Assembly: GCA_965242965.1 (NCBI GenBank)
Contig: OZ251518.1
Location: forward strand, 544,001-608,000
DNA from: Candidatus Poribacteria bacterium
GTDB lineage: Bacteria; Poribacteria; WGA-4E; WGA-3G
Direction of reading: 5' to 3'
DNA: 64,000 nucleotides
Part shown: piece after piece, positions 59,373-64,000 of the stretch
Numbering within the stretch: the first letter of the stretch is position 1
Layout: every line of letters begins with the position of its first letter
The notes under the pieces: generated by a model
The model's input: the letters and a program-made list of their open reading frames with translations, nothing else
What the model was told of the DNA's origin: nothing
Database searches by the model: none
Position numbers and translations under genes: made by a program

Positions 59373-60329
59373 CTACTGACGCTTCATTTTACCCCAGACC
59401 GTGGTTAACTGCGATGCTTTCGGCGCAACGGGCAACGCTACTTCGTCAAACCAGTCCGCATCGGTATTGTTTCCCTTGGTTGTGAGTTGTATCGGTTTCC
59501 CGCGTCCTGTCACAGCGACTTTGTAGAGCTGCGTCCGTCCTCCCTCTTTTCTCTCATACAGGATCTCATCGCCGTGCGGGGACCAGGTTGGATGATTGAC
59601 AATCCGATCTTTCACGAGATGCTTCACCTGAACGCCATCGCGAGACGTAATGTAGAGCGACATCTTATCGTCTACGCGCAGCGGACCGACTTGATTCCGC
59701 GGCCACTTGAAGCCGGCAAACGCGAGCCCATCACCGGCAGGAGACCAGGCGGGGTGTTTCATGATATACTTTTGTTCCCGAAGTAGCACATCTACGCTGC
59801 CTGTGTAGACATTGATGAGGTAAATATCCATACTCCCTCCCCAACCGTAGGCGATTTCTGTTCCATCAGGTGACCAGGTTGGATAGGCATATCTCCAATC
59901 AATTCGCGCCAATTGTTTGGCACCTGCGCCGGTGCGAGTCGCAGTCTTTATCATGTTTTTGTCGTGCCGCACGTAGGCAATCTGGATGTTGTCAGGAGAC
60001 CAGGTGGGTTCGGCGCGGTGTCTCGCGTTTTTAAAGACAGGACGCACTCTACTTCCATCCGCACGCATCAAATATAAATCCGGTATCCTGTCGCGAGTTG
60101 ACACAAATAGGATATGCTTGCCATCGGGGGACCAGGCCGGGTCAAAATCTTCCGCAGGGTGACGGGTTAAATTCGTCTGTTTGCGTCCATCGGGATTCAT
60201 GACGTAGATGTCTCTGTTCCCATCTCGGTTTGAGGTAAAGGCAATTTTGTGTTGGGTTCGCGCGTGTGCATGTAGACACAATAGGGAGAGGATTAGGACG
60301 CAAAAAAGCGTTAGACAGAGAGGTTTCAT
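59373..60329 (-). CDS. Secreted TolB-like PD40-repeat protein with WGxxK tail
   Basis: IAFTSNRDGN, repeated P.WSPDG; ends QLTTVWGKMKRQ. Confidence 0.88.
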   Translation of the reverse strand: MKPLCLTLFCVLILSLLCLHAHARTQHKIAFTSNRDGNRDIYVMNPDGRKQTNLTRHPAEDFDPAWSPDGKHILFVSTRDRIPDLYLMRADGSRVRPVFKNARHRAEPTWSPDNIQIAYVRHDKNMIKTATRTGAGAKQLARIDWRYAYPTWSPDGTEIAYGWGGSMDIYLINVYTGSVDVLLREQKYIMKHPAWSPAGDGLAFAGFKWPRNQVGPLRVDDKMSLYITSRDGVQVKHLVKDRIVNHPTWSPHGDEILYERKEGGRTQLYKVAVTGRGKPIQLTTKGNNTDADWFDEVALPVAPKASQLTTVWGKMKRQ

Positions 60330-60381
60330 GATGAAAAGAAAATGAGTGCCGGGAGGGCACGATGCCCTCCCGAACGCGAAA

Positions 60382-61248
60382 TTAGCGCACCTGTTTAATC
60401 GAACCCCAGGTTGTCGCTAACTTGTTCTTGGCTTCGACATCAAACGTGCCGTTTTCAGCGAGCCAGTTGTTGATGAACTCGGCGACACCGACACCACGGA
60501 TGTCGGGCTTATCGGCCCACACCGGGGCACCGAGCTGCCACATCGCGGCAATCATGCCAGTGCCATCTTTTCCAGGCGTTTTACTGACTGCCACCGCCGG
60601 GTCTGCCGTGTTTTTATCCGATTGTGCGAAAACGACGACATCCCAATCTGAACCATCAAACTGTTCAAGATGCCACGGACGGGTGGATTTGAAAGGCTTC
60701 ATCGAGGGAATAGCCTTTTTCCCGATGTCTGTCGGTTCCGAATTACCACCCCGGTCGGCGAAGGTGAGGTTATCAATGTCAAAGACATTTGCGGCTCCCG
60801 CTGCGCCATTATCGGGGCTCCGAACGCCGCCTTCGTAGCTCATGTAGAAAATCCAGTCGGCGACGTTAATGACGACGTTGCCTTCTTCAACGAAGTTTTC
60901 CACGTTAGAGCCATCAGGCTTTTTGTTCGGGAACGGATACAACGCGCTCGGTGTTGTGCCGCACGCGAGGATGATAACGTCTTGCTGCCCGTTGCCGGTA
61001 TGTTCAACGCACCACTGCGCGAGTGGGGAATTGTCACCCTCTTCGTCGCCATCACCGAAATCTTCGATGCTGTTGAAGAGTGCCTTGATACCGGCATCGT
61101 TCTTGATCGCCTTAACATTTTCTGCTACCGCACCGTCGGAAATCCAACCGGGATTCGTCGGGCCGGAGTAAAATGCCAAGTCATTGGCTTGAACGATAGC
61201 CATGCTGCTCATGAGAGCAAAAATGGCTAGACACACATAGAATTTCAT
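60382..61248 (-). CDS. Secreted hypothetical protein with WGxxK tail (paralog A)
   Basis: Signal peptide; clearly similar to 61410-62285; ends KLATTWGSIKQVR. Confidence 0.85.
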   Translation of the reverse strand: MKFYVCLAIFALMSSMAIVQANDLAFYSGPTNPGWISDGAVAENVKAIKNDAGIKALFNSIEDFGDGDEEGDNSPLAQWCVEHTGNGQQDVIILACGTTPSALYPFPNKKPDGSNVENFVEEGNVVINVADWIFYMSYEGGVRSPDNGAAGAANVFDIDNLTFADRGGNSEPTDIGKKAIPSMKPFKSTRPWHLEQFDGSDWDVVVFAQSDKNTADPAVAVSKTPGKDGTGMIAAMWQLGAPVWADKPDIRGVGVAEFINNWLAENGTFDVEAKNKLATTWGSIKQVR

Positions 61249-61409
61249 GATATGGAATTCCTCCTAGTTGTTGGAGCGGTTCGTTAGGAACAGCTCTATT
61301 TATCTTTATCGGACAGACGTGGCACCGTTTCCCATGTAATAGGCGCGCTAGTTCAGTGGCGCGGCGCAAACCGCGCCTACTAACTAGCGTCTGTCCTGTC
61401 GATCGAATA

Positions 61410-62285
61410 CTAGCGACCGGATTTGATTCGTCCCCAGGTTGTCGCTACTTTGTCCTGGGCTTCTACCGGGGTTGTGGTGATTTCGCCGTTTTCAACGAGC
61501 CAGTTGGCGATAAATTCAATAACGCCGGCGGCTCTCGGGTCATCGCCTTCCCAGTCTGGTTGTGCTTTCTGCCACATCGCGGCGATAATACCGCCGTATG
61601 TCTGGTTCACGGCGACGGCCGGGTCTGCAGAATTCGGGTCATCGTTTGAAATAGCAAACGGGGTGACTTCCCAATCCGTGCCTTCAAATTGCTCAAGGTG
61701 CCACGGCCGGTCAGACTGAAATTCCACGAGCGAGGGGATATATTTACTCCCCATGTCTGTGGGCACCGCCGGGCCGCCCCGGTTGCCGAAACTGAGTCCC
61801 GGTATATCAAACACGTTAGCGGCACCGTCCGCGCCGTTATCAGCACTTCGCGAACCGCCTTCGTAACTCATATACAGAATCCAATCGGCGACGTTGATGA
61901 AGACGTTCCCGTCCTCAACGAAGTTCTCGATGTTGGACCCGTCGGGATCGGCGTTTGGAAATTGGTAAATCGCGCTCGGCGCGGTGCCGGAAGCAGCGAT
62001 GAAGACATCCTGCTGGCCGTTGCCTGTGTGTTCCTGCATCCACAGGCCGAGTGCGGAATCGTATCCGACTTCGTCGCCATCACCGTAAACGTTGATGGTT
62101 TCAAAGATGGCTTTCATATCGGCATCGTTTGCGACGGCCTCACCGTTCGCGATGGCGGCTTCCTGCGAGATCCAGCCGGGGTTCGTCGGACCCGAGTAGA
62201 TTGCCAAGTCCGCCGCGGGCGCGTTGGATAAGCCAATGAGTGAAAGCGATAAACTCAGTATCGCTACGAGGAAAATTTTTCGCAT
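61410..62285 (-). CDS. Secreted hypothetical protein with WGxxK tail (paralog B)
   Basis: Shared YSGPTNPGWIS, HTGNGQQDV, INVADWI.YMSYEGG, RPWHLEQF; ends KVATTWGRIKSGR. Confidence 0.85.
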   Translation of the reverse strand: MRKIFLVAILSLSLSLIGLSNAPAADLAIYSGPTNPGWISQEAAIANGEAVANDADMKAIFETINVYGDGDEVGYDSALGLWMQEHTGNGQQDVFIAASGTAPSAIYQFPNADPDGSNIENFVEDGNVFINVADWILYMSYEGGSRSADNGADGAANVFDIPGLSFGNRGGPAVPTDMGSKYIPSLVEFQSDRPWHLEQFEGTDWEVTPFAISNDDPNSADPAVAVNQTYGGIIAAMWQKAQPDWEGDDPRAAGVIEFIANWLVENGEITTTPVEAQDKVATTWGRIKSGR

Positions 62286-62620
62286 GAATCAGCTCCTTTT
62301 GCATCCAGTCTGCGCAAAACAGATTGCGCAGAACAGGCAAAACAGAATAGCCCGCGACAAAACTCCCCGTGTGATACGGAGAGTGCGCGGGCACAATGAT
62401 AGTGACAGGACGGCAGCAGCTGCCGACGCGTCGTTATGATAATAGGAAGAGTAATAGTTGTTAAGTGAGGGGGGGGTGGTTAGCGATGCGTCACGAGCGT
62501 TACGGACACGGTGAGGCGCAAAGAGGTGTCGTCCCCACGATGCGTGGAGCCTTCCTTGCACGTTCCCTATTTTCACTGAGGTTTTGACACTGCAGTTTTT
62601 CACGCTCGTTTTCCCGTTCG

Positions 62621-63349
62621 TTATCGCTTGAGTTCTCCCCACGTCACGGCGAGTTTGTCATGGGGTTCAACCGCGAGGTTTACCCCGTTAGGATTATCGT
62701 AAAGATAGACGTTGTCAATATAGTAGTGCTGGAGTTGGTTCGTATGAATCCCGAGCACCCCCATCGGATGGAGGTCCTTCGGGTCACTCCATTCTACTAC
62801 TTTTTCAAAGACGAGCGCGCCCTGCCTCTTGATGAAGAGTTGGAAGTTGTTCCCATCGCCAAGCAGCGAGAGCGTATACCACTCCTTGCTTACAACCTGC
62901 ATCGGGAATTCGGCCCGATGGTCCCGATATTCAGTCCAGGTCCCCCGGTCGTTTCCTTCGCGTTTATACCAGCGTGCGGAATTCGGGCGACCGGCACCGT
63001 CAGCCGGCGTGATGATCAGTTGATAGAAATGGTAGTCCCTGTCAGCGCGAAACAAGAGTTCCATCTTGCTCGGGAACGGATCAACCAGCAGTTGGAAATC
63101 CAGTTGGAGCCCGAAGTTTTCAAACTCTATCTTGCCGTACCCGAAGTCGACTTCGCCATTTCCATCGCCGGCAATCCGGTGGATTTCCAGTTTGCCGCCC
63201 TTCACATCCCACGATTCTTTCTGGCCTTCCCAGAAATTATTTTTCAATTTGCCTGTGAAGTCATCTGCCATGAGCAGGCCCGCCTCACTCTGCGGACACA
63301 GCAAAAGCACAGATGCTAGCAGGCAGGAAAGAATAACAATCTTTCGCAC
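62621..63349 (-). CDS. Secreted beta-sandwich hypothetical protein with WGxxK tail
   Basis: GTG start after GGAGG; signal peptide; DDF..W..; IDNV; ends AVEPHDKLAVTWGELKR. Confidence 0.82.
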   Translation of the reverse strand: MRKIVILSCLLASVLLLCPQSEAGLLMADDFTGKLKNNFWEGQKESWDVKGGKLEIHRIAGDGNGEVDFGYGKIEFENFGLQLDFQLLVDPFPSKMELLFRADRDYHFYQLIITPADGAGRPNSARWYKREGNDRGTWTEYRDHRAEFPMQVVSKEWYTLSLLGDGNNFQLFIKRQGALVFEKVVEWSDPKDLHPMGVLGIHTNQLQHYYIDNVYLYDNPNGVNLAVEPHDKLAVTWGELKR

Positions 63350-63361
63350 AGCGATTTCCTC

Positions 63362-63712
63362 CGTTGAAATAAGCATTATTGTTGACATACTCCCTACACG
63401 CTAAAGCGTGGGGATTCAATGGTGTCGGTATCCCGTTGCTTCGTGTGGAATTCTGCGATGTGTGCGACCGACCGCACGCGTGAGATGCGCGGTTACCCGC
63501 GCCTGACACTCACTCTCACACTAGACTGATGCCCCGCCTAGATGATGGGTGGTAGATAACCGAACGATGCAGCATGACCCGACTTTCGCTCAGTCATCTA
63601 CCGTCGATGTTTTACAGGGTCTCACCTGCAACCCGCCAACGCCTCTTTCCACAGAGACAGATAGGCACCGCGACTTAGAATGCCGCGGGTGGAAACGCCT
63701 ATCTGGCAGGTT
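63362..63712 (-). ncRNA. TnpB omegaRNA-like structured RNA with flanking guide
   Basis: Internal promoter TTGCAT-17-TATAAT (63747-63719); dense hairpins; 3' part GGGGCATC..GTGTCAG..GAATCCCACGCTTTAGCGTG..GTCAA resembles tnpB 3'-end RNA scaffolds. Confidence 0.6.
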
Positions 63713-63811
63713 ATAGATATTATACCACATTTCTTTTTGGAATGCAAGTCTTTTTGATTTCATACCGTTAGCAATGTCTACATCCCGCAGTCTGAAGACT
63801 GGGGATTTGAC
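63382..63811 (-). mobile_element. Non-autonomous IS200/IS605-family element (PATE-like)
   Basis: Minus strand: TTGAT | left-end hairpin ATCCCCAGTCTTCAGACTGCGGGAT ... right-end GAATCCCACGCTTTAGCGTGTAGGGAGTATGTCAA; no tnpA or tnpB ORF. Confidence 0.8.
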
Positions 63812-63828
63812 ATCAAAGATGATATTAA

Positions 63829-63858
63829 TTATAACGTATTGGAACGGCATTTGTCAAG
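63829..63858 (-). promoter_or_regulatory. Sigma70 promoter, probable original promoter of 62621-63349
   Basis: Minus strand TTGACA-18 bp-TATAAT, about 12 bp upstream of the TTGAT insertion site. Confidence 0.7.
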
Positions 63859-63939
63859 TTTTTTTGCAAAATTCCGCGAAAAATGTTATTTTTTTTATGA
63901 GACATGCCAAATCGAAAAAAGTTCGTGAAAGGATAGAGT

Positions 63940-64000
63940 ATGCAATTGAAACGTAAAACCGTAGAGCGTTGGCTGCAAACCGTGCTCGCTTTTGTGCTGC
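63940..64000 (+). CDS. Start of a gene running off the window
   Basis: RBS AAAGGA, then MQLKRKTVERWLQTVLAFVL, open to the edge. Confidence 0.5.
   Translation, partial: MQLKRKTVERWLQTVLAFVL

Follow-up and report, generated by a model that had tools for sequence, protein, structure and literature searches.

An IS200/IS605-type mini-element of Poribacteria without protein genes, with an internal promoter, a folded 5' leader and an omegaRNA-like 3' domain

In IS200, the left-end control region combines a hairpin terminator with an RBS-sequestering stem in the tnpA leader, and in ISDra2 the insertion motif is TTGAT. According to the accessible part of Meers et al. 2023 (bioRxiv 10.1101/2023.03.14.532601), PATEs 'often encode omegaRNAs' that are acted on in trans by TnpB, and omegaRNA-encoding PATEs are noted there for Geobacillus stearothermophilus; the same text places the omegaRNA scaffold across the 3' end of tnpB and takes the guide from the sequence beyond the right end. 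Zedaveinyte et al. (bioRxiv 10.1101/2023.11.20.567912) show, in a figure legend, an element that has IStron ends and no gene. Gene-less elements encoding omegaRNAs are already in print; the leader RNA and the promoter-leader-scaffold layout described below were not found there.

The window analysed here is a stretch of 64,000 nucleotides from a Candidatus Poribacteria bacterium (contig OZ251518.1, positions 544,001 to 608,000 of the forward strand), and coordinates are those of the window unless a contig is named. An earlier reading of this DNA, made from the sequence alone, had proposed a mobile, protein-free mini-element with its own promoter and an omegaRNA-like guide RNA.

Ends, target site and host locus of the mini-element

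The mini-element is a non-autonomous, PATE-like element of the IS200/IS605 type, which is protein-free, multi-copy and found in precise presence/absence alleles. Its assignment as a protein-free mobile element of this type, made in the sequence-only reading, is borne out by the copies, by the empty alleles and by ends that are common to tnpA/tnpB elements. TTGAT, the left hairpin, the promoter, every stem, the right hairpin and TCAA were all recovered on the minus strand where that reading had put them. The features of the element and of its insertion site are as follows.

63828..63857, minus strand: host promoter TTGACA-18-TATAAT, sigma-70-type, 12/12 consensus positions by promoter scan, conserved in G048 and G049, where it adjoins the gene at the empty site
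63825..63828, minus strand: target tetranucleotide TTAA, the presumed transposon-adjacent motif, with empty alleles in G048, G049 and X5 contig record 25
63382..63824, minus strand: mini-element, 443 nt, ORF-free, left boundary alternatively 63823, placed by the X5 joint, the empty-site alignments and its own copies
63774..63814, minus strand: left-end subterminal hairpin, inner stem 63806-63782, GC-rich, kept in tnpA+tnpB, tnpB-only and gene-less relatives
63719..63747, minus strand: internal promoter TTGCAT-17-TATAAT, -35 box 63747-63742, -10 box 63724-63719, TG before the -10 box, directed toward the right end
63551..63602, minus strand: middle hairpin GGTAGAT ... ATCTACC, with a counterpart in most gene-less relatives and missing in L063
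63414-63391, minus strand: right-end hairpin, from sequence reading, fold and comparative structure
63385-63382, minus strand: terminal TCAA; the right end reads ...GTATGTCAA, with 63382 as its last base
63362-63358, minus strand: RBS GGAGG of the downstream gene, abutting the end of the 20-nt right flank
62621..63349, minus strand: downstream co-oriented gene, GTG start at 63349, signal-peptide-like N-terminus

Subterminal hairpins, not terminal inverted repeats, are present at both ends of the mini-element, and its boundaries are given by three empty alleles. The orthologous locus is without the element in 2/2 other species of the genus (G048 and G049), where the host promoter TATAAT is followed by TAA and then at once by the sequence that stands after TCAA in the occupied window. 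The third empty allele is carried by an X5 metagenome contig of 1231 nt, differing from the window by 11 letters, which joins 63379 to 63823 and thereby skips 443 nt, with one letter ambiguous; the occupied allele is found in contigs of three other runs. Since the three empty forms align ungapped to the occupied form only with the cut after TTAA (63828-63825), the element spans 63824-63382, the left cut being uncertain by 1 nt (after TTAA, or after the following Y). The real empty allele is thus TTAA followed directly by (T/C)AATAATG, and a target-site duplication is absent, as all three empty alleles run from TTAA directly into the right flank. The pentamer TTGAT (63816-63812), which had been taken for the target, lies within the left end, because the empty alleles shift the left boundary 8-9 nt outward, and the empty allele proposed with it, TTGAT followed by CAATAATG, fails for the same reason.

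In a flank-inclusive alignment, the right end is sharp at TCAA in 4/4 copies of the window's own genome, and on the left side the similarity among these copies extends ~13 nt past TTGAT. Copies B and C are preceded by TTAA, and the copies of the sister species G048 by TTAA or TTAT. Based on the absence of the insertion from both sister species and on the empty allele in a near-identical contig, its gain or loss appears evolutionarily recent. Its occurrence in only some of such close strains is indirect evidence for excision and insertion by a TnpA supplied in trans.

The final T of the host -10 box is also part of the TTAA target, and the insertion site lies 4 nt past that box. By insertion at the end of the promoter, the host promoter is now 443 nt away from the RBS of its gene, and since the site is just past the -10 box, transcripts of the host promoter would now begin inside the left end of the element. 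The downstream secreted-protein gene, for which no Pfam family was found, is still intact despite the insertion. Two paralogous secreted proteins (288 and 291 aa; 60382-61248 and 61410-62285, minus strand) have a ...(T/V)TWG.(I/L)K.. tail similar to that of gene 62621-63349, and a similar tail is seen in the ORF after copy C; this common tail may be a sorting signal.

No TnpA- or TnpB-like ORF lies within the element, on which the ORF list and blastx agree with the earlier reading. That reading had also advised a check of whether the interior is a decayed tnpB, and the outcome was negative: blastx of five gene-less elements against six TnpB proteins gave nothing under E 0.027. A decayed tnpA was rejected likewise, with nothing under E 0.013 in blastx of the same five elements against one TnpA.

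The internal promoter was found where it had been proposed, and its counterparts in relatives, TTGACA/TTGACT-17-TATAAT-like boxes in the same position and mostly with TG, stand ahead of tnpA or tnpB. The promoter is missing from a simple promoter-scan list because its -35 box matches 3/6 consensus positions. Between it and the right hairpin extend ~330 nt of stems. The minus strand folds with -170.7 kcal/mol (z -4.85; 0/100 shuffles as good), and the plus-strand fold is weaker (z -3.74).

Searches with Rfam 15, which includes IS605-orfB-I and HEARO, gave no match at E <= 1 in window positions 60000-64000. At the same threshold eight matches were obtained in 18 related loci, none of them within an element; two were T-box leaders downstream of two copies, and six were sub-threshold microRNA models. 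The T-box leaders (L035:948-1227 and L048:1977-2220; 104 and 111 bits, above the gathering score) follow closely on gene-less copies that have inserted in front of an acetolactate-synthase-like gene, seemingly the same locus in two genomes. The strong fold, the covariation described below and the lack of an Rfam match would also suit a multi-copy structured non-coding RNA gene that is unrelated to transposition. Such a gene is very improbable here, given the precise presence/absence after TTAA, the terminal hairpins and promoter in common with tnpA/tnpB elements, and the homology of the 3' part to the tnpB 3' end.

Copies, relatives and the 3' domain

Further copies and empty sites had been suggested as a check of mobility, and the own genome, besides the three empty alleles seen elsewhere, yielded three full copies (100, 93 and 82% identity) and one 165-nt 3' copy, copy D (L004:1501-1664; G000:C1:4347971-4348134). 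In copy D a TTGACA ... TATAAT box is fused directly to the 3' domain, and neither left end nor leader is present. Downstream of each of copies B, C and D lies an ORF in the same orientation. Copy B (L002; G000:C1:3705001-3705475) carries a 24-nt palindromic insertion in the loop of the right-end hairpin, and the right flank of copy D belongs to a repeat family with dozens of genomic copies.

Of 159 genomes of the order searched at the DNA level, 90 contained matches, many of which cover the end hairpins alone. Twenty related loci were read, of which 11 are gene-less, one is a truncated gene-less element, five carry tnpA and tnpB, one a tnpA remnant and tnpB, and two a leader and tnpB (one tnpB truncated). 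The gene-less relatives measure 400-560 nt, and the same left-end hairpin and conserved promoter stand at the start of all three element kinds. Elements with tnpA or tnpB and matching ends, which had been named as something to look for, were found in other genera: the complete elements L111 and L112 encode a TnpA of 139 aa and a TnpB of 370 aa; their left end and promoter are the same, and their 3' end is collinear with the 3' domain of gene-less copies. Similarity between gene-less copies and a complete element is confined to the first ~105 nt and the last 85-95 nt.

Several copies of the sister species are interrupted by insertions of ~150-300 nt rich in CAGGATT-like repeats, which lie between left hairpin and promoter in L062, L064 and L073, and inside the middle hairpin in L070 and L071. 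The latter two (G048 contigs C54 and C43) are without the left-end hairpin, and have the same internal start and similar promoter-like right flanks, which suggests duplication or another spreading route.

Two features concern the putative guide RNA.

63382..63546, minus strand: 3' domain (omegaRNA-scaffold region), homologous to the tnpB 3' end and right end by alignment A2 with six tnpB-linked 3' ends
63362..63381, minus strand: right flank, candidate guide by position only, 20 nt ending at the RBS

In tnpB-bearing relatives, the 165-nt homologous stretch begins at the C-terminal ...NIL(K/R)VG... codons and ends at the right end, and the 3' domain is collinear with the six tnpB-linked 3' ends. 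An RNAalifold consensus of 11 gene-less and six tnpB-linked sequences consists of a common first stem, then a double stem that is nested, and the hairpin of the right end, with 27 pairs of which 13 show compensatory changes. This homology and the helices in common uphold the omegaRNA-like region that had been read in the sequence.

That the last 165 nt derive from a tnpB 3' end could equally be said of a decayed tnpB pseudogene or of an IStron-like element (group I intron plus IS), and gene-less elements derived from IStrons are in print, in the accessible part of bioRxiv 10.1101/2023.11.20.567912. Upstream of the scaffold region, however, there is no protein similarity, and neither a group I intron nor any other Rfam match at E <= 1 is found within the element, in the window region or in the 18 related loci. 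The element furthermore has an internal promoter and an intergenic position, and does not lie inside a transcript that needs splicing. A pseudogene or IStron is the least credible of the readings considered, unless the Rfam models missed a highly divergent ribozyme core.

Flank position 63381 is polymorphic between runs. The first 16 flank nucleotides of copies A (the window copy), B and D have no second genomic match at <=1 mismatch. A TldR-like domesticated guide was rejected, as the flanks of A, B and D are without a second target and no tnpB-like gene stands beside any copy. For copy C, the 16-nt right flank was found a second time, with one mismatch, next to a different element end, ...TAAGTCAA (contig C1, reverse-strand index 3211249), and copy C and that other element may have used the same repeated target.

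As to the protein partners, five long tnpB frames and two Y1 matches are found in the own genome. Three of its tnpB elements have only ~36-nt end hairpins in common with the mini-element by BLAST. An intact-looking TnpB of 420 aa matches the ISDra2 TnpB chains 8h1j and 8exa over its whole length (E 1.6e-28) and the Pfam families OrfB_IS605 and Cas12f1-like_TNB, with acidic motifs visible by eye in the alignment; its 3' region is 51% identical to the 3' domain of the window. The two nearest tnpB-linked 3' ends of the own genome have 51% and 43% identity to this domain, copy D has 92%, and a tnpB-linked 3' end of the sister species has 63%. Within G048, gene-less copies and a tnpB-linked 3' end are 75-76% identical. 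The only tnpA within a related element of the own genome is a 90-aa fragment, so that the copies of this strain may be unable to move. A guide function in trans is plausible, although the absence of a close cognate tnpB 3' end from this genome weakens the case for it.

The fragmentary tnpA, the 51% identity of the best own-genome tnpB-linked 3' end and the presence of only three full copies, diverged to 82-93% identity, would all fit a formerly mobile element that is now stranded and inert in this strain, without cognate TnpA and unused by any TnpB. Such an end state is possible and yet on the doubtful side. An empty allele exists in a contig that differs by only 11 letters, and both sister species are without the insertion; paired positions have been kept between the copies; and with the genome 94.66% complete, a transposase gene could be outside the assembly.

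The 5' leader RNA and its stand-alone cassettes

The internal promoter is followed by the leader, whose helices, on the minus strand, were taken from RNAalifold except for the pseudoknot.

63606..63712, minus strand: 5' leader domain, by RNAalifold and pair counts; own covariance model R1 scores 101.4 bits here
63712-63706 with 63636-63630, minus strand: P1
63705-63697 with 63666-63658, minus strand: P2
63688-63668, minus strand: P3 hairpin
63657-63642, minus strand: P4 hairpin
63695-63689 with the P4 loop, minus strand: pseudoknot of 7 bp, added to the RNAalifold model by hand and then pair-counted
63629-63614, minus strand: P5 hairpin
AAAACATC, minus strand: 3' tail, at the end of the leader domain

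The leader alignment contained 19 sequences from three genera over 104 positions. The RNAalifold consensus comprises a three-way junction closed by P1, the helix P2 topped by P3, and the hairpins P4 and P5, with 28 pairs, 15 of them compensatory. When pairs were counted with the pseudoknot included, 95.9% of cells were paired, versus 81.2% in shuffled alignments and 35-45% in slid controls; 19/35 pairs had changed on both sides, and 0/500 shuffles matched any of five measures. The pseudoknot helix, which joins the P4 loop to the internal loop above P2, is 92.5% paired, with 4/7 pairs compensatory. Conservation resides mostly in helices P1, P2 and P5, and the pseudoknot, P3 and P4 are freely variable. 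Many G-U pairs, which would be A-C mismatches on the opposite strand, fit an RNA of the minus strand, as does the stronger minus-strand fold. The leader, judged by the comparison of these sequences, is a real folded RNA. Covariation in the stems had been asked for by the sequence-only reading, and compensatory changes are present in the leader (19/35 pairs) as in the 3' domain (13/27 pairs).

The 5' strand of P5 repeats the 3' strand of P1 in tandem, and the pairings 1:2+3:4, 1:3 and 2:4 are therefore all possible, in 19/19 sequences. The ACCTGC/GCAGGT stem of the earlier reading is pairing 1:3; it can form in 19/19 relatives, but it competes with the comparatively preferred AACCTGC/GCGGGTT. 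The same reading had described a structured 5' domain of ~200 nt in place of tnpB. Its structure is real and covarying, but it is no substitute for the gene, as it also precedes tnpB in tnpB-only relatives. There the leader lies between promoter and tnpB, in the slot that tnpA has in autonomous elements; read by eye, these leaders are of like architecture and different sequence, and only a few bases separate the 3' strand of their P1 from the start codon of tnpB.

The leader matches no Rfam family and is uncatalogued there. In the literature searched, no description was found of a pseudoknotted leader of TnpB elements or of these Poribacteria elements, and no published description of the promoter-leader-scaffold layout. 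As to its role, the leader may, at a guess, control or protect the transcript at its 5' end. A riboswitch was considered and rejected: the leader precedes tnpB, no gene or unrelated genes, and not genes of one pathway, and its conservation is mostly in helices. The occurrence of promoter and leader before unrelated ordinary genes in particular disfavours it.

With its covariance model, the leader was found in 80/151 genomes sampled from the order, with >300 matches in total and at least 26 in each of two genomes. In a sample across the phylum, 78/151 genomes had matches (74/99 in family f1, 3/26 in f3 and 0/25 in seven other families). The genome of the window has the leader in its three full copies and in a weak fourth match (E 1.3e-4). 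Twenty-nine leader loci were listed, two of which, at contig edges, were unreadable, leaving 27. Most of the readable loci among those listed are gene-less elements, some with other types of left-end hairpin. In 6/27 of them, promoter and leader (one partial) stand directly before unrelated genes, without left hairpin or 3' domain, which shows that the promoter-leader unit can outlive the transposon. These end-less cassettes are L107 (G000:C1:5581635-5581760, minus strand), L094, L100, L101, L102 and L104; judged by eye, the genes behind them code for secreted proteins and for a small membrane protein, and one ORF resembles a HicB-type antitoxin. In L081, L084, L098 and L103, promoter and leader follow left-end hairpins of other sequence types, and modules appear to have been exchanged between IS605-type lineages.

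These cassettes raise the possibility that the element as a whole is a portable unit in which selection keeps the promoter and leader for driving the adjacent host gene, while the ends are the vehicle and the omegaRNA-like part is vestigial. Such selection would account for the intact gene of the window, which has been cut off from the host promoter, and it agrees with the six of 27 readable loci listed where ordinary genes follow promoter and leader without transposon parts, with the co-oriented ORFs after copies B, C and D, and with the compensatory changes that keep the leader structure among gene-less copies. However, the 3' domain equals the leader in conservation, with compensatory changes that maintain its pairs, copy D has a 3' domain without a leader, and several gene-less copies point, by eye, away from the next gene. 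This possibility is rather unlikely, and it is compatible with the explanation preferred below.

For the leader itself, a wider proposal can be put forward tentatively. With its three-way junction, pseudoknot and duplicated strand that allows two exclusive pairings, it might represent a new class of cis-acting RNA module of IS605-type elements, acting as a conformational switch or as a 5' cap-like fold by which the tnpB/omegaRNA transcript is controlled in its stability, processing or read-through. Together with its promoter, it might have been kept repeatedly by hosts as an expression cassette once the transposon ends had decayed.

Proposed origin and comparison with known systems

The explanation preferred here, with a probability of about 0.8, is that the mini-element is a descendant of an IS605-type element without protein genes and a guide-RNA module for TnpB in trans. 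It would have arisen by loss of the protein genes, with retention of the end hairpins, presumably the sites at which the Y1 transposase (TnpA) recognizes single-stranded DNA, and of the left-end promoter, which probably drives tnpA or tnpB in complete relatives. The other parts thought to be retained are the pseudoknotted leader, the middle hairpin and the omegaRNA-scaffold region of ~165 nt. From the internal promoter, one RNA of leader, scaffold and flank would be made, crossing the right end. A TnpB encoded elsewhere would trim and bind the scaffold and take 16-20 nt of the flank as guide; after excision, its cut at the empty TTAA site could lead to restoration of the element by recombination. 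The transcript probably continues into the downstream gene and would so substitute for the displaced host promoter.

Under this explanation, the mini-element would be a well-documented natural example of a guide-RNA module moving independently of its nuclease. Since its boundaries are exact, empty alleles exist, relatives range from complete to intermediate and copies number in the hundreds, the proposed modularity of TnpA, TnpB and omegaRNA is testable with natural parts. Such elements may also rewire host genes, by replacing promoters and by leaving promoter-leader cassettes behind. The part most worth attention is the leader, an uncatalogued folded RNA with unusually clear covariation that is tied to TnpB elements.

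Among the described systems, IStrons, as far as the accessible preprint text presents them, likewise have a structured RNA in the 5' part of an IS605-type element, before tnpB and omegaRNA, and have gene-less derivatives. The window element differs from them in having no group I intron signature and in a 5' domain of ~105 nt; since its internal promoter is upstream of the leader, the leader, unlike an IStron, cannot be spliced from a host transcript. The IS200 left-end region resembles it in a promoter inside the left end that is followed by a folded leader, and P1 of tnpB-only relatives has its 3' strand right against the start codon. The leader of the window, in contrast, is a three-way junction of 104 positions with a 7-bp pseudoknot and a duplicated strand, and it stands before tnpB or no gene, not before tnpA.

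The 3' 165 nt run, like an ISDra2-type omegaRNA (reRNA), from the codons of the TnpB tail to the right-end cleavage site, and share helices with tnpB-linked copies. The putative scaffold of the window differs in that it is not linked to tnpB, has 51% identity to the nearest own-genome copy and uses the motif TTAA, not TTGAT. PATEs, in the accessible account of them, come closest: they are gene-less, have hairpins in common with tnpA/tnpB elements, insert at a motif without duplication, contain an omegaRNA region and need TnpA and TnpB in trans. Compared with PATEs as described in that account, the window element has in addition a conserved internal promoter and ~220 nt of extra structure, the leader and the middle hairpin, before the scaffold, and its family forms hundreds of copies in one bacterial lineage, some of which, now without their ends, persist as leaders of genes.
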